From positions 750,001 to 782,000 of the forward strand of contig JALDRA010000001.1 in the NCBI GenBank assembly GCA_031316235.1: a stretch of DNA of 32,000 bases. Reading direction: 5' to 3'. Of this stretch, positions 10,953 to 20,274 are shown one piece after another. Made by a program: the position numbers and the translations under genes. The stretch comes from Candidatus Scalindua sp. Lineage in GTDB: Bacteria; Planctomycetota; Brocadiia; Brocadiales; Scalinduaceae. A model generated the notes under the pieces. That model worked only from the letters and a program-made list of their open reading frames with translations. It was not told where the DNA came from and made no database searches. Numbering within the stretch: the first letter of the stretch is position 1; each line of letters opens with the position of its first letter.

Positions 10953-13391
10953 TCAATTCATATCCTCTGGCGTTATCAGGCCACATAACACCTTATTCAG
11001 CACCTTGATTTCAAACGGTTTTGACACACCTCCACAAAAACCGTACCATTTAAAATTGGATAAAATCGGATCATTGGAGTATCCACTTGACACTATCGCC
11101 TTTACGTCAGGATCTATCTCAAGCAGTCTCTTAACCACTGTCTCTCCTCCCAGTCCGCCAGGTATGGTTAAATCCAGTATAACCGCATCAAAGGAGTCAT
11201 CCTCTTCTATAGCATTCCTATACAAACGAATTGCTTCTTCCCCTTCTCTGCATACCTCAACATCGTATCCGATGTTCCTCAGCAGCTGGCTTGTTGTATA
11301 TCTGATCTGCACCTCATCATCCATTATCAATATCCTTCCCTTGCCTGCAATTGGGCTTTCCTGCTTATCATCATTCACCGGGACCTCTTCTTCAGATATC
11401 GGTATATAGAAATGGAAGGTTGTTCCGGCCCCTATCTCCGATTCTACACTGATATATCCTCCATGGAACTTAATAATGGAAAAACAAACCGCAAGTCCCA
11501 GGCCGCTGCCCTTCTCCTTTGTCGTGAAATATGGATCAAATATCATGTTAGTATGCTCTTTTTGTATTCCGTATCCATAATCCACAACAGTTACCTTGAT
11601 GTAATCTCCGGGTTTCAGCGTGGGAACTTCCTTGCGGTCTATGGTGACATTTTCAGCAAAGACCTCTATCATACCGCCTTCCGGCATGGCCTGATCGGCA
11701 TTAATTATGAGATTGTTGATTACCTGGCTGATCTGTCCTGCATCAATATCGACAGGCCAAAGGTCATCAGGCAAAGAAATGTTGCACGTGACTTTTGAAC
11801 CTCTCAGGCTGAAACTGATTGTATCTTCTATCACTTCCCTGATAGAGGATGGCTGCTTTATCGGTAATCCACCTTTAGAAAAGGTAATGAGCTGAAATGT
11901 GAGCTTCTTTGCCATAAAAGCTATTTTTTCTACTTCTCTCAGATTTTGATATGGCGCGTCCTCTTTATGCACTCCCATCTTCGCAAGTGCTATATTCCCC
12001 AGTATACAGGCAAGATAGTTATTGAAATCGTGTGCAATACCACCGACAAGGATCCCCAGAGATTCAAGTTTTTGTATTCTGAGACGCTCTTTTTCTATTT
12101 TCTTCTGCTGGGTAAGGTCAATGGCAACTCCGATTGATCCTACGAGTTTTTTACTCGTATCATAGCGCGGGTGAATGGTATAAAAGACCGGAAACACTTC
12201 ACCACCTTTGCGAATCAGAATCGTCTCCCCGAAAAACCCCTTTTCCCCTCTTCTCAAAGCCTCCTGCATTGCAGTTATATCTTTAATGAATTCCTGAGGA
12301 TGGAGGGTGGCGAACCGTTCTCTTAATACTTCCTCTTTGGAGTATCCAAATATCTTTTCTGCACCCGGGCTGAAATTCAATATCTTCGTACCTTCTCCAC
12401 CAAGATCAGTCATGATAAGCGCAACGTTATCTACCGCATCGTACATCGCACGCAGAGACCCTTCCTGTTCATGTAAACCCTCTTCCGCCTTTTTGCGTTT
12501 GACCATTCCTGCCAACGTGTTCGCTATTGATTCCAGGAACAACTCCTCCCGTTCAGGTCTTTTCCCCAATTCGTCAAGATAGAGCAATAGTACACCAATC
12601 ACCTGTTCATCCAGCCTGATAGGTACAATGTAGTGACCATGTGAAACAATTTCTTTGTAGAGGTTCTCGTCTCGATCATCAACAGAATATTTATACATGA
12701 TATTTCTAAACTGGGCGGCCCTGCCACAGAGACAATGCCCGAACGTAACGGAAGAACACATCTTAACATGTTTCTTATCCAGACTTCGGTTTACCTTCAC
12801 TACAAGTATTTCTGGCTCATCTTCCACAAGAAATATTCCACCCTTTGGCAGTGCAGACATCCAGGGTACGGAAAGAATCACATCCAGAGATTCTTCCAGC
12901 TGTTTCGTGAGATCAATCTCCTTTAGTGATATCTTGAGGAGTTTATTCAGTACCTCCTGGTTCTGGTACGTCTCCTTCAATTCCTGATCCACTTTTTTAC
13001 GTCTGTTGACCTGGTTAATGGTAGAGAGGAGATGATCGATGTTTAATGGTTGCGTCTCGGACGATATCGCAGTTTTCACTGCTTCAATACCGTTATCCGG
13101 GGTAACAAAAGACGACATCAAGATAAATTCGGTTGAAGGCGAAATATCTCTTAATTTCCTGCTCAGTTCATCACCGGCAATGTCCGGCAACTTAACAGCT
13201 ATAAGGACGATGTCATAACTTTTGTACTTTATCAGGGTGACCGCATCCTTGCCACCATAACAACACTCAACAGTACAGTCATTACCCTCCAGGAACTCCT
13301 TCAAGCCCTCAGAGAGTACTTCATTATCATTAATAATAAGTATGTGAGTTTCTGTTTCCATCACAGGAGTCGTTTGAAACGAAGCGTTCAT
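10953..13391 (-). CDS. Hybrid sensor histidine kinase (pseudo-receiver, GAF, PAS, HisKA, HATPase_c, receiver)
   Basis: H-box GGIAHDFNNYLACILG. ATPase N/G boxes INNLIINADQAM, DYGYGI, GSGLGLAV. C-terminal receiver ILIMDDE...AVILDLTIPGG...SSGYS...KPF. GAF-like CLCGRAA region. N-terminal receiver-like fold with Ala in place of the phospho-Asp. Confidence 0.9.
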   Translation of the reverse strand: MNASFQTTPVMETETHILIINDNEVLSEGLKEFLEGNDCTVECCYGGKDAVTLIKYKSYDIVLIAVKLPDIAGDELSRKLRDISPSTEFILMSSFVTPDNGIEAVKTAISSETQPLNIDHLLSTINQVNRRKKVDQELKETYQNQEVLNKLLKISLKEIDLTKQLEESLDVILSVPWMSALPKGGIFLVEDEPEILVVKVNRSLDKKHVKMCSSVTFGHCLCGRAAQFRNIMYKYSVDDRDENLYKEIVSHGHYIVPIRLDEQVIGVLLLYLDELGKRPEREELFLESIANTLAGMVKRKKAEEGLHEQEGSLRAMYDAVDNVALIMTDLGGEGTKILNFSPGAEKIFGYSKEEVLRERFATLHPQEFIKDITAMQEALRRGEKGFFGETILIRKGGEVFPVFYTIHPRYDTSKKLVGSIGVAIDLTQQKKIEKERLRIQKLESLGILVGGIAHDFNNYLACILGNIALAKMGVHKEDAPYQNLREVEKIAFMAKKLTFQLITFSKGGLPIKQPSSIREVIEDTISFSLRGSKVTCNISLPDDLWPVDIDAGQISQVINNLIINADQAMPEGGMIEVFAENVTIDRKEVPTLKPGDYIKVTVVDYGYGIQKEHTNMIFDPYFTTKEKGSGLGLAVCFSIIKFHGGYISVESEIGAGTTFHFYIPISEEEVPVNDDKQESPIAGKGRILIMDDEVQIRYTTSQLLRNIGYDVEVCREGEEAIRLYRNAIEEDDSFDAVILDLTIPGGLGGETVVKRLLEIDPDVKAIVSSGYSNDPILSNFKWYGFCGGVSKPFEIKVLNKVLCGLITPEDMN

Positions 13392-14130: not shown

Positions 14131-14138
14131 CATTATTG

Positions 14139-15221
14139 ATGATGAGAAGAAACAGAGACAAAAAGGTGTATAAAAAAGGATTTAATCTTTTTGAAGCATA
14201 CCCGATGACCTTTTCAGAAAAAGTGGAATCCGTTGGGTATGATGGACCTGCAGAGGCTTTTACCATTCCATCACCTGGTTCAAAAGTCGAGCATATTGTC
14301 ATAAACCTCTGCCCTACTGAACCATGGGCACTTCCAAACTCAATAGCCATAGAGAATAATGCCCAGGAATTCTTTTCACAACTGGATACCGTACGAAAAC
14401 AACTCTTTGATGAATCATGCTGCCATGTCGTCATAAGTGCTCACGAAAGGGACCTGATGAGAGAAGTACAGGGGTTCAAGGGGTATGGTGACTGGCTGCA
14501 CACATACCTGCTGGATCCCATATACCCCCATGATGATCCAGTCCTTATATTGAATGAACTCCTGGGGTTAGACCTTGCCTTTGGTCAGGATAGCGTTGAA
14601 ATAGGTGTTCTTTTTTTAGATGCCCAGACCGTTACCGGTATATTTGAGCATCATATTCAAGGGAACAGATACAGTACCCGTCTCATACCCATATCCGGAA
14701 CCGGGTTAGTGAAAAACAAAATTCTCAAGGTTACGCCCGGTACTCCTCTTCGTGTACTGCTGGAGGGGAACATCAAACAAAATATCACCTACCGGGCATT
14801 TATTGACGGTCCGTTAAAGGGGTCTGAAGTCACCGATTTTAGTCAGAAGTTAAACTGGTCGACAAACAATATCGTTGTTCTTGAGGAAAAAGATTACAAG
14901 ACACCATTTCCTTATGTAAATTTAGACAAGCTGCTTTTTACGACAAGCCTGATGGGTGAATTGAGACACTGCGTATACTGTAATCATTGTGACGATATAT
15001 GCCCTGTCGGTTTAGAACCAGTCCTGTTCTGGCAATGTCACGAACGGGGAGAGAAGCAGAAGGCGCACCTTTATCGATTAGACAAATGTATCGAATGTGG
15101 ACTCTGCAGCTTTATCTGCCCTTCAAAGCTGGAGCTCCTTCAGGCTATCAAGGATTGTAAGTCAATTACCGCTGCAGATCAGGGCCCGGGAACAGATCAG
15201 AGTAAAGGGGCGGATGGATAA
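14139..15221 (+). CDS. RnfC/NqrA-like subunit with two 4Fe-4S motifs and no NADH/FMN loop
   Basis: CVYCNHCDDICP and CIECGLCSFICP (CxxCxxCxxxCP, twice). IVINLCPTEPW aligns to the NGAECEP segment of RnfC/NuoF-type domains. No GxGGAGFP loop and no long N-terminal RnfC_N region. It is the first gene of an nqr/rnf-like operon. Start may be ATG 14139 or 14142 (TTG 14136 in the track). Confidence 0.7.
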   Translation: MMRRNRDKKVYKKGFNLFEAYPMTFSEKVESVGYDGPAEAFTIPSPGSKVEHIVINLCPTEPWALPNSIAIENNAQEFFSQLDTVRKQLFDESCCHVVISAHERDLMREVQGFKGYGDWLHTYLLDPIYPHDDPVLILNELLGLDLAFGQDSVEIGVLFLDAQTVTGIFEHHIQGNRYSTRLIPISGTGLVKNKILKVTPGTPLRVLLEGNIKQNITYRAFIDGPLKGSEVTDFSQKLNWSTNNIVVLEEKDYKTPFPYVNLDKLLFTTSLMGELRHCVYCNHCDDICPVGLEPVLFWQCHERGEKQKAHLYRLDKCIECGLCSFICPSKLELLQAIKDCKSITAADQGPGTDQSKGADG

Positions 15222-15239
15222 CTTTCCACTTTCGTGGGA

Positions 15240-16361
15240 ATGGCAGAGAATTACATGAAAATAAATCGGATTTCAAAAAATAAAGATCCTTTTGTCAATA
15301 AAACTCTCAACAGGATTGAATCATTCATACATACACGACCCAGGGTCAATTTTCTTTTCGGGTCGCTTTTCGATGCCTTTGACGGACTTATAAGAAGTGC
15401 AAAAGACACTTCCAAGTCTCCTCCCTTCATTCGAAATCAGATGGATGTAAAACAGTATATGGGTGGTGTCATTGTGGCATTAATTTTTGGTTGGGTACTC
15501 CCCGCCATTTATTTCTATGGATTTTTCTGCGTTGTCCCCAAGATTATTGTATCTTTTGTTGTCGGTGTTTTTATTGTAGAGGTACTATGGGTCATCCTTG
15601 CCAGAGAAACGAAGATCAATGAAGGAGGATTTGTAACGTGCCTCTTTATCCCTGCATTCTTACCTCCCCAGGCACCTCTCTGGCTTGTCGGTGTGGGAGC
15701 TGCTGTCAGCATACTCCTCAGAAATATCCTTGGAGGGGTAGGAAACAATCTTGTGAACCCGGCCCTGTTGGGGCGTCTGATCTTGACTATCTGTTTTCCC
15801 TCTGTAATTGTCTTCGGCTGGCAGGAACCCCTTACGACTCTCCCAACCCTGCAATCCCTGCAATATGGAGTTGATGCGGTCACCCACGCAACTCCCCTGA
15901 TGCTCTACAAGGAAACAGGAGAGATAACATCGTACATTTCTCTCTTACTCGGAACCGGTACCGGTTCCCTGGGAGAAACGTGCCGGATAGCCATTCTCAT
16001 AAGCGGAATATGGTTATGCATAAAGCGGATTGCAAACTGGAGAATTCCCGTTGCTTTTTTAGGGAGCGTATTTTTCTTCGCTCTCCTGTTCTCTCTGCTG
16101 AGGGGAGAGACGGTGATACCGCCAATGCTGCAGCTCATGAGCGGAGGTCTTATCTTTGCTGCATTCTTTATGGCAACAGATCCGGTTACGACAACATACA
16201 ATCAGACGAGTAAGTGGATATTTAGTATCGGTTGCGGTTTTTTTACCGTGGTAATCAGAAATTTTACTCCTGTCCCTGAAGGCGTCATGTATGCCATCCT
16301 GCTGATGAATCTGATAGGGATCCCGATCCAATCTATCGTCTTACGGATAAAGTACCGATAA
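15240..16361 (+). CDS. NqrB/RnfD-like membrane subunit
   Basis: GVDAVTHATPL (flavinylation-type Dxx[ST]xA[ST] motif) and FFMATDPVTT near the C-terminus, polytopic. The start is ambiguous (GTG 15234, ATG 15240 or ATG 15255). Confidence 0.85.
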   Translation: MAENYMKINRISKNKDPFVNKTLNRIESFIHTRPRVNFLFGSLFDAFDGLIRSAKDTSKSPPFIRNQMDVKQYMGGVIVALIFGWVLPAIYFYGFFCVVPKIIVSFVVGVFIVEVLWVILARETKINEGGFVTCLFIPAFLPPQAPLWLVGVGAAVSILLRNILGGVGNNLVNPALLGRLILTICFPSVIVFGWQEPLTTLPTLQSLQYGVDAVTHATPLMLYKETGEITSYISLLLGTGTGSLGETCRIAILISGIWLCIKRIANWRIPVAFLGSVFFFALLFSLLRGETVIPPMLQLMSGGLIFAAFFMATDPVTTTYNQTSKWIFSIGCGFFTVVIRNFTPVPEGVMYAILLMNLIGIPIQSIVLRIKYR

Positions 16362-16441
16362 TTGCCGATCCATCAAGACTTGAAACGAAAATCAATGAAT
16401 TAAATACCTGTACCCTTTGAATAACGAAAGCACGTAAAAAA

Positions 16442-17152
16442 ATGAATGAATTGAGAAACATCATAACAAGGGGTTTCACGATCTTCCTCATTACGACAAT
16501 ACCGTGTACCATACTGCTCACCATCTACTTTGTTACTTCTCCGAGAATAGCAGAATATCATGAGATAAAATTGAAAAAATCTGTCCTTGATATTTTTAAA
16601 ATTCCCTATAAAGTTAATGAGCGGCAACTCTTCCTCTTTACATTGAGCAGTCCTGATAAAGAAGATATCAGAAAGGTTTTTGAAGACAACATAACCGTTG
16701 AAAACCTGCCAGAAACCGTAATATCAGATCGAACAGCGGGAGATCTTCAAAAAGAGAAAAAAGAGAAGAACCTCTTCAGGTATTATAAGGAGGGGAAATT
16801 AGAGGGTACAGGTTTTGTAGTAACAAAATTCGGCTATGGATTTAATAAGGCGGCCGACATTTCACTCTTTCTCTGTGTAGCCCCGGACCAGGAGACTATA
16901 AAGGGTATCGAGGTACTGGAACACGCGGAGACACCAGGCCTTGGAGGCAGAATGACTGATGATGAATTTAAGAGACAATTTATAGGGAAAAAGGTGAAAC
17001 CGAAACTCTCCTTTGTCAGCGACAGAGAATCAGCGGGTGACAACGAAGTACATGCTATTACGGGAGCTACTTACTCAAGTAAAGGGTTGGAAGCGATAAT
17101 TAATGAAGCAATGGAAACATTCTGGCAGGAAATAGAGGCGAAGAGCAAATGA
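16442..17152 (+). CDS. NqrC/RnfG-like FMN-binding subunit
   Basis: N-terminal anchor helix and VHAITGATYSSKG (the [ST]GAT flavin-attachment motif of the FMN_bind domain). His occupies the position usually held by Asp three residues before the T. Confidence 0.8.
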   Translation: MNELRNIITRGFTIFLITTIPCTILLTIYFVTSPRIAEYHEIKLKKSVLDIFKIPYKVNERQLFLFTLSSPDKEDIRKVFEDNITVENLPETVISDRTAGDLQKEKKEKNLFRYYKEGKLEGTGFVVTKFGYGFNKAADISLFLCVAPDQETIKGIEVLEHAETPGLGGRMTDDEFKRQFIGKKVKPKLSFVSDRESAGDNEVHAITGATYSSKGLEAIINEAMETFWQEIEAKSK

Positions 17153-18573
17153 ATGTGATTGCAAGATATATAAGACAAGCAGCAAAGTTCTTTTTACGGG
17201 ACAATTATATCATAACGTCCGCAGCAGGGCTCGGTTTTTGTTCAGCACTGGCAGTTACCAACAAGATGGAAAATTCCCTTACCATGAACGTTGGGATTGT
17301 TTTTGTTACCTGTGGAAGTTACTGTCTTGTGTATCCGTTCAGGAAATTAATCCTGGCATCGGGTACACATCACAGGATTACGCTCCTCATGATAATCATA
17401 TCCGTATTTGTTGCGATATTTAATCTGATAACACAGGCACTGATACCCAGGATTGCCTTTAGTATTCAGGCTTATATCGACCTTATTACCACGAACTGCA
17501 TCGTCCTTGCCGTAATTTCTGAAGGCCTGACCTATGAATTCTGGGATGCGCAGAAAAAGATCCTGAAGGCATGCCTGGGATACTCTATTGCCCTTGTCTT
17601 TTTAGCCCTTATGAGGGAACCTCTGGGATTTGGAACGATTCTTAATTTCCGGGTGCTCCCCGAGAGTTTTCCGGTAGTGATATTAATGATAACCCCTGTG
17701 GGTGGTTTTTTCGCCCTGGCGTTATGGAGACTCATGCTCAGGCCATTATTTATAAAAACAGGTGTTGTATTGCAGGAAAGGCCTCAGGAAGAAGCCCCTG
17801 AAACAGCTGCACAGGCAGCACCTCCTGCTTCCCTTCCCCCAAAATCAAAATTACCAGTGATGTCGAAAAAGTTCATCATCACTCTGGGAGTGGGAGCCGT
17901 TCTTATCGCAAGCCTACTCCTCAACCTTAAGGCTTTTCCATCGTTTCAGAGCCAGATGAGAGTCTTATTTCCCCTGTTTCTGAGCGCCCTGTTTTTTGAT
18001 GGTATCGTATTGAGTAAGCTTCTGGGAATCTGTCCTCTCTTAAATAAATCAAGACAGATTGATACCGCATGGAAAATGGGTCTGGCAGTCGTCATCGTCG
18101 TCACCTTATCCACAAGCCTTAACTGGATAGTTTATAACAAGGTATTGCTTAACGTAAGTGATTACGTTGCAACAATCTCTCCCGTTTCGATACGGCTTGA
18201 AAAGATATTCTACCTTACGGTCTTCATTGTTACCATTGCTACATTTGTACAGATACTTGGAGTACTGCTCAGACGTTTTGCAATGGACATCTATCAGCAA
18301 ATGGGTCAGTTTCTTGAACTCATCACCGTAAACTGCATCGTCCTTGCAAGCTCCACCTTTACCATCCCTTCAGGTCTCCCGTTCTGGTCTACGACTATTA
18401 CGGCCTTTGGTTTTGGTCTCCATTGGCTCATGGTATGTGTCTGGCTTGCGGTATTACGGCGTCAAAGGCTGTTTGTTGCATCAAATTCATGGGATGAAGA
18501 TTCTCTGGCAATACTCCTTTTGGGAATCATGGCAGCTATCTTTACCGGCATCGGGATGATAAACATCTTTTAA
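17149..18573 (+). CDS. Fused NqrD/RnfE-like + NqrE/RnfA-like membrane subunit (474 aa)
   Basis: The N-half has GLGFCSALAVT and IDLITTNCIVLA. The C-half has LLGICPLLNKS and LELITVNCIVLA. These are the two hallmark Cys-containing half-helices of each paralog. The halves are joined by a Pro/Ala-rich linker (QERPQEEAPETAAQAAPPASLPP) plus an extra hydrophobic helix FIITLGVGAVLIASLLLNL. The start overlaps the upstream stop (ATGA). Confidence 0.8.
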   Translation: MNVIARYIRQAAKFFLRDNYIITSAAGLGFCSALAVTNKMENSLTMNVGIVFVTCGSYCLVYPFRKLILASGTHHRITLLMIIISVFVAIFNLITQALIPRIAFSIQAYIDLITTNCIVLAVISEGLTYEFWDAQKKILKACLGYSIALVFLALMREPLGFGTILNFRVLPESFPVVILMITPVGGFFALALWRLMLRPLFIKTGVVLQERPQEEAPETAAQAAPPASLPPKSKLPVMSKKFIITLGVGAVLIASLLLNLKAFPSFQSQMRVLFPLFLSALFFDGIVLSKLLGICPLLNKSRQIDTAWKMGLAVVIVVTLSTSLNWIVYNKVLLNVSDYVATISPVSIRLEKIFYLTVFIVTIATFVQILGVLLRRFAMDIYQQMGQFLELITVNCIVLASSTFTIPSGLPFWSTTITAFGFGLHWLMVCVWLAVLRRQRLFVASNSWDEDSLAILLLGIMAAIFTGIGMINIF

Positions 18574-18636
18574 ACGTAATCGTATACATATGGCTTCAAT
18601 GAAAATACCGGAACAAAAAGTTACAGGGACCATACA

Positions 18637-20274
18637 ATGCTAACGCCTATTATATTTACCTTAATAGTTATTGTCGTACTTATGCTCGCATTGTCCGGCC
18701 TGAGCGAGATAATATACCAGCTGTTCGGCAAAGGGAAGAGACTACGGCTGGTTATCCACAGTGACAATGAATTCAAGAAGGAATTAGATTTTGAAGGCGG
18801 GGAGAAATTGCTCTCTATTCTTCAAACCAAGGGATTTAATATCTCCTCCGGATGCGGTGGAAATGCCACATGTGGGCAATGCAAGGTAAAGTTGCTTACA
18901 AACATGGGAACCTATGCTCCTACCGAGGCTCCTCTCTTTGATAGCATGGCAAGAAAAGAAACGAGGGAGTTTCTTGAAGAGGGCAAGGGTGACGGGTATA
19001 CGAGACTCTCCTGCCAGGTGAGGGTAGATAAAGATGTCGATATATATCTCCCGGGTTCAACGCTGCACGTAAAAAAATATACTGCACGAGTTTTAAAAAA
19101 GATACAACTCACCAGCGATAAATATGAAACACACCTACACCCATTTCAGAAATTTGACTTTATTCCAGGTCAATATATACAGATACGGCTCCCCGATGAT
19201 TATGTAGAGGAGCATTACAAGGAATTTGGTGAAAAGATACAGTGTTATTGCAAAGAAATTGACAAGAGATTTATACCCTATACCCCTGGACTTGATATAT
19301 ATCGTGCCTATTCATTGGCTACGACAAAAACAGAACCATTGAAATTGATTACGAGAATCGCGCCCATCAACCCCCGTGTTCCGATTGAAAAGGGAGGTGT
19401 ACCGTGTATTGGACCTCGATGTATAAAAGATTATATTCAAGATGAATCAATCTGGAATTTATGGGTTGGAGACAGAATACGGTTTACAGGTCCCTATGGG
19501 AATTTCCACCTTGTGAAGGAGAAACACCAGGCGGTCTTCGTCGCAGGTGGTGCCGGTTTAGCCCCCATCCTTGCACTGATGGAGCAGTGGTTCAATGAAG
19601 GACGTCATGAGAGTATATTTTTTTTCCTCGGTGAAAGGAGATTTCAGGATATACCTTTACGGTATATATCAAGGTGGTTAAAACAGGAGAAAGAATTTTC
19701 CAATTTCAAATTTATACCCGTTTTGTCAGGTGCGTTTAAGGGAGATGATCCGGCAGAGATGGACAGTCTGGATAAAGAGTGCCTTGATCAGGCTTCAGAT
19801 GAACTGAAGGGAGATATTTTAGAAGAGGGGCTGATAGATGAAAGCGGTGATAAATGGTCAGGCAAAACAGGTTTTATCGGCCCTTTGCTCACCGAATATC
19901 TCTCTCCCGGCGCTGACACGGTCTTCTATCTGTGTGGTCCCGCTCCCATGACCGTAACCGTTATCGATTCTGCGGCAAATAACCTCGGTATAGAGAAAGA
20001 TCGTGTCCAGTTCGATGATTTTACGGGCACACTTACGCCCTCTCTTGACCTGATCTACCAAAACATCGAGTTGAAAAAGAAAATTGAGGCGCTTCATCTG
20101 CTCCATGCCGATGAGTATCTAAAAAAGATAAGCCTCATTCTGATCATAAAGCTGATACTCAGAGATAAAATCGACGATAGTTACACGTTTCTCGATAAAG
20201 TCAAAAACATTGTGGATAATGACGGGGGGAGTAAAGAGGCCGCCCTGGAATCGTTATTGAAGGAATATGATTAG
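18637..20274 (+). CDS. NqrF-like reductase subunit (TM anchor, 2Fe-2S ferredoxin, FAD/NAD(H)-binding) with insertions and a C-terminal extension
   Basis: N-terminal TM helix. SSGCGGNATCGQCKV...RLSCQV (Cx5Cx2C...C as in NqrF). RAYSLAT (RxYS FAD motif). VFVAGGAGLAP and YLCGPAPM (NAD-binding). At 545 aa it is much longer than the roughly 400-aa size I recall for NqrF. Confidence 0.8.
   Translation: MLTPIIFTLIVIVVLMLALSGLSEIIYQLFGKGKRLRLVIHSDNEFKKELDFEGGEKLLSILQTKGFNISSGCGGNATCGQCKVKLLTNMGTYAPTEAPLFDSMARKETREFLEEGKGDGYTRLSCQVRVDKDVDIYLPGSTLHVKKYTARVLKKIQLTSDKYETHLHPFQKFDFIPGQYIQIRLPDDYVEEHYKEFGEKIQCYCKEIDKRFIPYTPGLDIYRAYSLATTKTEPLKLITRIAPINPRVPIEKGGVPCIGPRCIKDYIQDESIWNLWVGDRIRFTGPYGNFHLVKEKHQAVFVAGGAGLAPILALMEQWFNEGRHESIFFFLGERRFQDIPLRYISRWLKQEKEFSNFKFIPVLSGAFKGDDPAEMDSLDKECLDQASDELKGDILEEGLIDESGDKWSGKTGFIGPLLTEYLSPGADTVFYLCGPAPMTVTVIDSAANNLGIEKDRVQFDDFTGTLTPSLDLIYQNIELKKKIEALHLLHADEYLKKISLILIIKLILRDKIDDSYTFLDKVKNIVDNDGGSKEAALESLLKEYD

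Follow-up and report, generated by a model that had tools for sequence, protein, structure and literature searches.

A fused NqrD/RnfE-NqrE/RnfA gene with an additional hydrophobic helix between its halves in the RNF/NQR-hybrid operon of Candidatus Scalindua and other anammox bacteria

The 32,000-nucleotide stretch of a Candidatus Scalindua sp. genome analyzed here (assembly GCA_031316235.1, contig JALDRA010000001.1, positions 750,001 to 782,000 of the forward strand; hereafter the window, numbered from its first letter) carries five co-oriented + strand genes, 14136-20274, that form an RNF/NQR-hybrid operon conserved in anaerobic ammonium-oxidizing (anammox) bacteria. The subject of this report is the fourth of these genes, in which an NqrD/RnfE-like and an NqrE/RnfA-like domain are encoded as one polypeptide. 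RnfA and RnfE, like NqrD and NqrE, are classic paralogous membrane proteins of opposite orientation. In Na+-NQR, NqrD and NqrE are inverted relative to each other and contribute four cysteines to a shared mid-membrane [2Fe-2S] cluster (PMC10643135); RnfA and RnfE are likewise inversely arranged, and their broken helices I and IV have been described (PMC9588780). The fused gene is made up as follows.

17149..18573, + strand: fused NqrD/RnfE-NqrE/RnfA gene, one stop-free open reading frame (ORF) of 474 amino acids
17149..17760, + strand: N-half, NqrD/RnfE-like six-helix domain, residues 1-204, with an amphipathic N-terminal helix and cysteines C31 and C117
17761..17865, + strand: soluble linker, residues 205-239, Pro/Ala/Glu-rich, with a Lys-rich end (KSKLPVMSKK)
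17866..17931, + strand: predicted extra (13th) transmembrane helix, residues 240-261 (KKFIITLGVGAVLIASLLLNLK), from hydropathy and an AlphaFold2 helix
17932..18570, + strand: C-half, NqrE/RnfA-like six-helix domain, residues 262-474, with cysteines C295 and C396

The start codon, ATG 17149, overlaps the stop codon of the upstream RnfG/NqrC-like gene (ATGA) and is preceded by AGAGG; the frame closes with the TAA at 18571-18573. A first-pass annotation, made from the letters of this DNA, had described a single uninterrupted ORF of 474 residues holding both paralogous halves, and profile and structure databases assign the same two domains in the same order. The Pfam model Rnf-Nqr (PF02508) matches the protein as two separate domains (E value 1.1e-59, 201.8 bits against a cut-off of 23.8), which score 104.6 and 109.5 bits in a genome-wide search. 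NCBIfam models of NqrD/RnfE align to residues 26-209 and those of NqrE/RnfA to residues 273-473. Sequence matches to chains of the Protein Data Bank (PDB) follow suit, with RnfE (9eri_E) and NqrD (7xk3_D) covering residues 10-192 and 19-172, and NqrE (7xk3_E) and RnfA (9eri_A) covering residues 275-442 and 274-469. The two halves are homologous to each other (E value 2e-07) at only 24% identity, which points to a fusion of long-diverged paralogues and not to a recent internal duplication.

Hidden Markov model scores place both halves roughly equidistant between Rnf and Nqr, and below the curated cut-off of each model. The N-half scores 123.9 bits against RsxE (NF009070, cut-off 184), 112.9 against rnfE (TIGR01948, cut-off 213.4), and 122.6 and 110.6 against the NqrD equivalogs NF006777 and TIGR01939 (cut-offs 235 and 244.85); the C-half scores 143.3 against rnfA (TIGR01943, cut-off 229.3) and 124.9 against nqrE (TIGR01940, cut-off 247.55). 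The halves thus reach about half the curated cut-offs of the NqrD/NqrE models, and their homology to RnfE and RnfA (A. woodii 9eri, C. tetanomorphum 7zc6, A. vinelandii 8ahx; E. coli YdgQ/YdgL) is equal or slightly closer (rnfA 143 vs nqrE 125 bits). Identity to Vibrio cholerae NqrD and NqrE is 26-31%; unlike the Scalindua protein, these are two polypeptides of about 200 amino acids with no linker helix.

All four hallmark cysteines noted in the first-pass annotation are present, C31 (GFCSALAV, nucleotides 17239-17241) and C117 (TTNCIVLA, 17497-17499) in the N-half and C295 (GICPLL, 18031-18033) and C396 (TVNCIVLA, 18334-18336) in the C-half. They are invariant in the 59 fused homologues aligned, as are the N-C-[IV] half-helix motifs of both halves, and they align to the ligand cysteines of PDB chains, including C26 and C120 of Vibrio NqrE and the NqrD cysteines mutated in PMC10643135. 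Breaks in the AlphaFold2-predicted helices, at residues 23-30, 114-117, 291-294 and 394-396, fall at the cysteines of helices I and IV of each half, and broken helices I and IV are shared with the Vibrio proteins. The invariance of the four cysteines and of both N-C-[IV] motifs speaks for two functional halves with a single site in common. In Nqr, the earlier annotation had placed an intramembrane Fe-S centre at these positions; that centre is now known to be a [2Fe-2S] cluster (PMC10643135).

Between the halves, the linker QERPQEEAPETAAQAAPPASLPPKSKLP and the hydrophobic helix FIITLGVGAVLIASLLLNL are both found as first described. Residues 205-239 have a predicted local distance difference test score (pLDDT) below 50 and no predicted secondary structure in either of two AlphaFold2 models, and this soluble linker is the least conserved region of the protein: clades share 17-30% identity there, compared with 46-76% in the domains. 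The stretch between the domain motifs, linker and extra helix together, varies from 67 to 85 amino acids across lineages and is always in frame. The helix that follows reaches a 19-residue Kyte-Doolittle value of 2.38 at its peak, one of the highest in the protein, and is modeled at residues 240-261 with a pLDDT of about 81-82 in the second model. A hydrophobic 19-mer (Kyte-Doolittle 2.06-3.31) lies between the halves in each of the 59 fused homologues, and G249 within the helix is invariant in a 15-sequence alignment and conserved in at least 90% of the 59. Residues rich in Lys/Arg directly precede the extra helix in all clades and flank it on its N-terminal side only, as is expected for a helix entering the membrane from the cytoplasm. 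We infer that the soluble linker is cytoplasmic and that the extra helix runs from the cytoplasmic to the outer side.

The linker differs between lineages in its cysteines. Brocadiaceae linkers contain a conserved Cys-x-Cys, either C-E-C or C-G-C (P0120, P0272, P0277, P0285; L017 6494-7933); near the same position a third clade, introduced below, has CC or C, and Scalindua has none. An extra metal or redox site in the Brocadiaceae linker is possible.

Hydropathy gives six hydrophobic segments in each half and one between them, 13 in all, and predicted secondary structure agrees. One AlphaFold2 model was built from the 59 fused homologues (pLDDT 60.0, predicted template modeling score [pTM] 0.56) and was used for secondary structure and the fold of the C-half only; the other was built from fused sequences plus 45 free RnfE/NqrD sequences (pLDDT 77.6, pTM 0.73). 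An alignment combining fused sequences with RnfE and RnfA singles was discarded, as it placed the RnfE singles on C-half columns. Both models contain an amphipathic N-terminal helix, 6 transmembrane helices, disorder at 205-239, the helix at 240-261, and 6 more helices. Under Foldseek, the N-half of the second model superposes on NqrD/RnfE chains with template modeling scores (TM-scores) of 0.80-0.86 and root-mean-square deviations of 2.3-2.5 Å, and the C-half of the first model superposes on NqrE/RnfA chains with TM-scores of 0.77-0.81. For the Vibrio chains in particular (PDB 7xk3, 8a1t, 8acy), TM-scores to the Scalindua protein are 0.80-0.84 for D and 0.77-0.80 for E.

The orientation of the halves was judged from the lysine plus arginine (K+R) bias of the loops, that is, by the positive-inside rule, and not from model coordinates. 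With 13 helices, the 59 fused proteins carry on average 25.4 K+R inside (the side of the N-terminus) against 8.4 outside, and inside exceeds outside in both halves in every one of the 59 sequences. Free-standing relatives show the same two patterns separately. K+R concentrate on the side of the termini in 64 of 64 free RnfE/NqrD proteins (10.7 vs 2.5) and in 0 of 55 free RnfA/NqrE proteins (1.5 vs 6.8). In the window protein the counts on the termini side and the other side are 12 vs 4 for the N-half and 4 vs 7 for the C-half. The fused halves therefore keep the opposite charge biases of the two free-standing families, a bias that also indicates inverted topology in Vibrio NqrD and NqrE; with only 12 helices, the C-half would break both the positive-inside rule and the pattern of its own family. 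The first-pass expectation of 13 helices and of a preserved inverted arrangement is thus supported by hydropathy, predicted secondary structure and charge bias, which together point to a predicted 6+1+6 topology with antiparallel halves.

The fused gene is widespread in anammox bacteria and nearly confined to them. More than 115 full-length proteins, 466-475 amino acids long and 76-99% identical, came up in a word-indexed protein search, the named ones from Candidatus Scalindua (AMX11, arabica, japonica). A search of 91 species genomes from the same order gave stop-free matches, spanning residues 1-474 or 4-474, in 25 of 26 genomes of the same family (77-90% identity), and full-length ones, also free of stops, in 46 of 47 genomes of a second anammox family (64-67% identity); the few truncated matches are on small contigs. 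In three other families of the order, rnfE/rnfA-type genes occur only separately. In an even sample of 401 genomes from across the phylum the fused gene was confined to the two anammox families, including 17 of 17 genomes of the second; three other Planctomycetota matches that span both halves contain stops and so represent separate genes. Records carrying the fused gene include Scalindua spp., Brocadia pituitae, B. carolinensis, Jettenia ecosi J2, Kuenenia sp. and Wunengus. The orthologous fused 'NqrDE' proteins of Jettenia ecosi J2, Brocadia and Kuenenia have the same layout of D-like half, variable linker, hydrophobic helix and E-like half, 64-67% full-length identity and the same five-gene operon. 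They differ from Scalindua, whose linker is Pro/Ala/Glu-rich without the Brocadiaceae C-E-C and whose genome lacks separate rnf/nqr copies. The same five-gene operon lies on a Jettenia ecosi J2 contig, where the fused gene encodes 479 amino acids and the product is 65% identical to the Scalindua protein.

A third clade (P0121, P0270, P0271) shares about 45% identity with each of the two anammox families, likewise has a hydrophobic segment separating its halves, and shows the same operon order as Scalindua on two Logan contigs (L013 and L020, from SRR22388260 and SRR29324594). No genome of this clade was found among GTDB species representatives, and it is seen on short Logan contigs only. Beyond these clades, an exhaustive HMMER scan of 1.84 billion representative proteins returned no other convincing two-domain relative, the remaining matches being one linker-less singleton read-through and obviously broken sequences. 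In 80 metagenome loci picked for their RnfE/NqrD relatives, separate genes number 75 of the D/E type and 61 of the A/E type, and the single fused gene is an anammox orthologue. The database search for fused Rnf-Nqr pairs that the first-pass annotation had proposed thus ends with the two anammox families and the third clade, and its view that the fusion is real and selected agrees with a frame kept free of stops in about 70 species genomes of those two families and in the third clade. Elsewhere in the 96.85%-complete Scalindua genome PF02508 has no match, so the operon encodes the only RNF/NQR-type enzyme of the organism; Brocadiaceae genomes have 2-4 additional rnf/nqr matches, in separate copies.

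Several candidates for independent fusions were examined and set aside. P0126 (377 amino acids) is a direct RnfE-RnfA read-through with no linker helix, a singleton on one contig; P0238 looks frameshifted; P0157 is an internal-duplication artefact; a Calditrichaceae locus has nqrD and nqrE as separate genes; and five long ORFs in the metagenome loci hold one Rnf-Nqr domain each. A Scalindua-type fused gene, cut by the contig end, occupies positions 1-756 of a contig labelled as an uncultured Thermodesulfobacteriota metagenome-assembled genome (L062), which is probably mis-binned. Two further proteins are other topologically "legal" variants: P0198 (338 amino acids) is an RnfG(FMN_bind)-RnfA fusion whose periplasmic domain leads straight into the RnfA N-terminus, which faces outside, and P0234 (274 amino acids) is NqrE-like and extended at its N-terminus by a signal-peptide-like segment. 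In one other family of the order (L014 5744-7006; L015; L019), which is probably a basal anammox lineage, rnfE and rnfA are adjacent and share a frame that a single TAA interrupts (…GEKI*MTGEL…), rnfB comes next, and there is no linker helix.

The gene very probably encodes a single-chain NqrD-NqrE (RnfE-RnfA) heterodimer, the [2Fe-2S]-binding membrane module of an RNF/NQR pump, with 13 helices and antiparallel halves. The following points weigh against this interpretation. Confidence in the AlphaFold2 models is moderate (pLDDT 60.0 and 77.6; pTM 0.56 and 0.73). With both halves far under every curated NqrD/E and RnfE/A cut-off, their function may have diverged to some extent. The exposed linker might also be a site of proteolytic processing.

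An artefact of assembly, a frameshift or a missed stop in this genome could be suspected, since isolated read-throughs of adjacent rnfE-rnfA do exist in databases (the P0126 singleton) and in one family of the anammox order the two genes are held apart in frame by TAA alone. The same stop-free architecture, with its about 70 extra residues, recurs in independent assemblies, several of them closed genomes, from two families and the third clade; this conservation across genomes excludes an artefact for practical purposes. The ORF might instead act as two proteins, through internal initiation near Met238 or through cleavage in the linker or after the extra helix. The first-pass annotation had itself raised reinitiation at ATG 17860. 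That in-frame codon is Met238 and, with an in-frame GTG at 17857, lies just before the extra helix; the linker is predicted to be disordered, the layout of KK, hydrophobic core and NLKA resembles a signal peptide or internal signal-anchor, and at least one free-standing NqrE-like protein (P0234) has a signal-peptide-like N-terminus. Yet no Shine-Dalgarno-like sequence was found upstream of 17860, and Met238 is not conserved: relatives from other clades have I, V or L there, or no counterpart at all. The residues after the helix also vary (NLKA, NVKA, NINA, NIKT, HIQT, GLGW), with no conserved small-x-small (signal-peptidase) motif across the relatives compared. About 70 lineages have moreover kept the frame open through a fast-evolving linker, which would be unexpected if separate products were needed. 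Judged from these sequences, internal initiation or processing appears unlikely.

The helix count raises the remaining alternative, in which the extra segment is peripheral or re-entrant and the halves are parallel, or in which one half is a non-functional remnant. AlphaFold2 confidence is indeed only 55-70 in parts of the C-half. Against a segment that does not span the membrane stand its length of 19-22 residues and its hydropathy, which holds at 2.06-3.31 in all 59 homologues, with Lys/Arg on the N-terminal side only; a 12-helix chain would also put the K+R-rich loops of the C-half outside in 59 of 59 fused proteins, opposite to the 55 free RnfA/NqrE proteins. Against a remnant half stands the invariance of all four cysteines and of both N-C-[IV] motifs. 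We regard this alternative as very improbable, and an antiparallel single-chain heterodimer is the interpretation carried forward here.

The other four genes of the operon place this module in its probable enzyme.

14136..15221, + strand: shortened RnfC/NqrA-like subunit with two CxxCxxCxxxCP [4Fe-4S] motifs; only Fer4-type Pfam matches
15234..16361, + strand: RnfD/NqrB-like membrane subunit (PF03116, E value 3.1e-79; rnfD 210.1 bits, NqrB 201.8 bits)
16442..17152, + strand: RnfG/NqrC-like subunit binding flavin mononucleotide (FMN), with an N-terminal membrane helix (PF04205; RnfG 70 bits, NqrC 60 bits)
18637..20274, + strand: NqrF-like subunit of 545 amino acids (PF00111, PF00175; nqrF TIGR01941, 169.3 bits)

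The start of the first gene is ambiguous (TTG 14136, ATG 14139 or ATG 14142), ATG 14139 being possibly the true one. Its product scores higher against RnfC (102.6 bits) than against NqrA (65.4 and 49.8) and retains two [4Fe-4S] motifs; Pfam detects neither an NADH/FMN nor an N-terminal RnfC domain in it, and the RnfC model aligns from position 149 onward. The NqrF-like subunit consists of a membrane helix, a 2Fe-2S ferredoxin domain, a flavin adenine dinucleotide (FAD)/NAD(H) domain and extra segments. Its nqrF score of 169.3 bits is below the cut-off of 295, and at 545 amino acids, against about 405 for NqrF, it has insertions and a C-terminal extension, since the model match ends near residue 367; the orthologues in Brocadia and Jettenia are of similar length (542 amino acids). 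No RnfB-like gene was found in the operon among the ORFs of the window. Compared with Na+-NQR, the "A" partner subunit of Scalindua differs in having RnfC-type Fe-S motifs. With RNF the operon shares the gene order E then A and, by prediction, the antiparallel heterodimer pair, whereas in RNF the E and A genes are separate and the operon has RnfB and a full RnfC; in Scalindua the NqrF-like subunit replaces RnfB, and the RnfC-like subunit is without a detectable NADH/FMN part. By its gene content the operon looks intermediate between RNF and NQR.

Two flavin motifs and a neighbouring gene deserve mention. Where the covalent-FMN motif usually reads D-x-x-[ST]-G-A-T, the RnfD/NqrB-like subunit has DAVTHAT (15873-15893). 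Orthologues from Scalindua and Brocadia keep the His of this sequence; in the third clade it reads DAITSAT. The RnfG/NqrC-like subunit has VHAITGAT (17051-17071) in Scalindua where Brocadiaceae have VDAITGAT, that is, His for the usual Asp. Upstream, a large hybrid sensor kinase (10953-13391, - strand) is transcribed divergently from the operon, and a Brocadiaceae genome (L017) has a comparable 803-amino-acid kinase with a response regulator at the same position, also divergent, which suggests conserved regulation of the operon.

By analogy with the Na+-NQR and RNF structures, the following mechanism can be proposed. The N-half would insert as NqrD/RnfE does, with both ends cytoplasmic; a disordered cytoplasmic linker of about 35 residues, ending in lysines, would follow; the helix at 240-261 would carry the chain to the outer face; and the C-half would then insert as NqrE/RnfA does, with both ends outside. 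Since the inverted pseudo-twofold pairing would be preserved, two cysteines from each half could bind the mid-membrane cluster. Electrons would reach the cluster on the cytoplasmic face, from the 2Fe-2S domain carried by the NqrF-like subunit, and leave it on the opposite face for the FMN of the RnfG/NqrC-like subunit, by a redox-linked mechanism of alternating access. A single chain would fix a 1:1 stoichiometry and the correct assembly of the antiparallel heterodimer, and its linker helix would stand in for the translocation that the N-terminus of RnfA/NqrE otherwise undergoes unassisted. Taken together, the subunits would make a hybrid enzyme, in which input is of the NqrF type, the core resembles RNF, and the RnfC-like Fe-S subunit has no NADH/FMN domain that could be detected.

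The fusion itself is already known and is modest as a discovery. It has been mentioned for the orthologous operon of Jettenia ecosi (PMC6828613), and a passage of PMC9325076 cites de Almeida et al. 2016 for a Kuenenia "RnfEA", earlier annotated "NqrDE". A 2025 review of RNF and NQR does not mention it, and no analysis of the linker helix was found in the literature searched. The principle of such a helix is established as well. In FEX fluoride channels, two homologous domains are joined via a transmembrane linker that forces an antiparallel orientation (PMC5417652), and the DUF606 family includes heterodimeric and fused antiparallel forms, and a route of duplication, divergence and fusion has been described; the same work lists YdgQ/YdgL as an antiparallel heterodimer pair (PMC3962082). 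These fusions share with the anammox protein two homologous, opposite domains and one extra membrane helix that forces the antiparallel arrangement; in fold and function they are unrelated to it. FEX is built of 4+1+4 helices, and one of its pores is vestigial; the anammox fusion would have 6+1+6, with ligands kept in both halves. Novelty is low because the fusion is in print, because many database copies exist and because the linker-helix principle is established. What is added here is the topological rationale, the taxonomic limits, the third clade, near-uniqueness among 1.84 billion proteins, and the finding that these are the sole Rnf/Nqr-type membrane domains in this genome.

With more doubt than conviction, we also put forward a wider proposal, that the anammox protein is the only natural single-chain RnfA/RnfE (YdgL/YdgQ) pair and represents the so-far undescribed "fused" stage of the duplication-divergence-fusion route, within an anammox-specific enzyme that is neither RNF nor NQR (NqrF-type NADH input, RNF-like core, and a stripped RnfC-like subunit with 2x[4Fe-4S]) and that is the sole such pump in Scalindua.

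The redox-linked conformational switch of the mid-membrane [2Fe-2S] cluster drives RNF and NQR pumps, and a natural single chain shows that the pair around it can be covalently linked with its ligands retained. Such a chain could be of use in structural work, expression and engineering, where it offers fixed stoichiometry, a single gene and asymmetric mutagenesis of the halves. The RNF/NQR-hybrid operon of anammox bacteria is poorly characterised, and because it holds the only Rnf/Nqr-type membrane domains in Scalindua, it probably matters for the NADH, ferredoxin, quinone and sodium economy of this organism.

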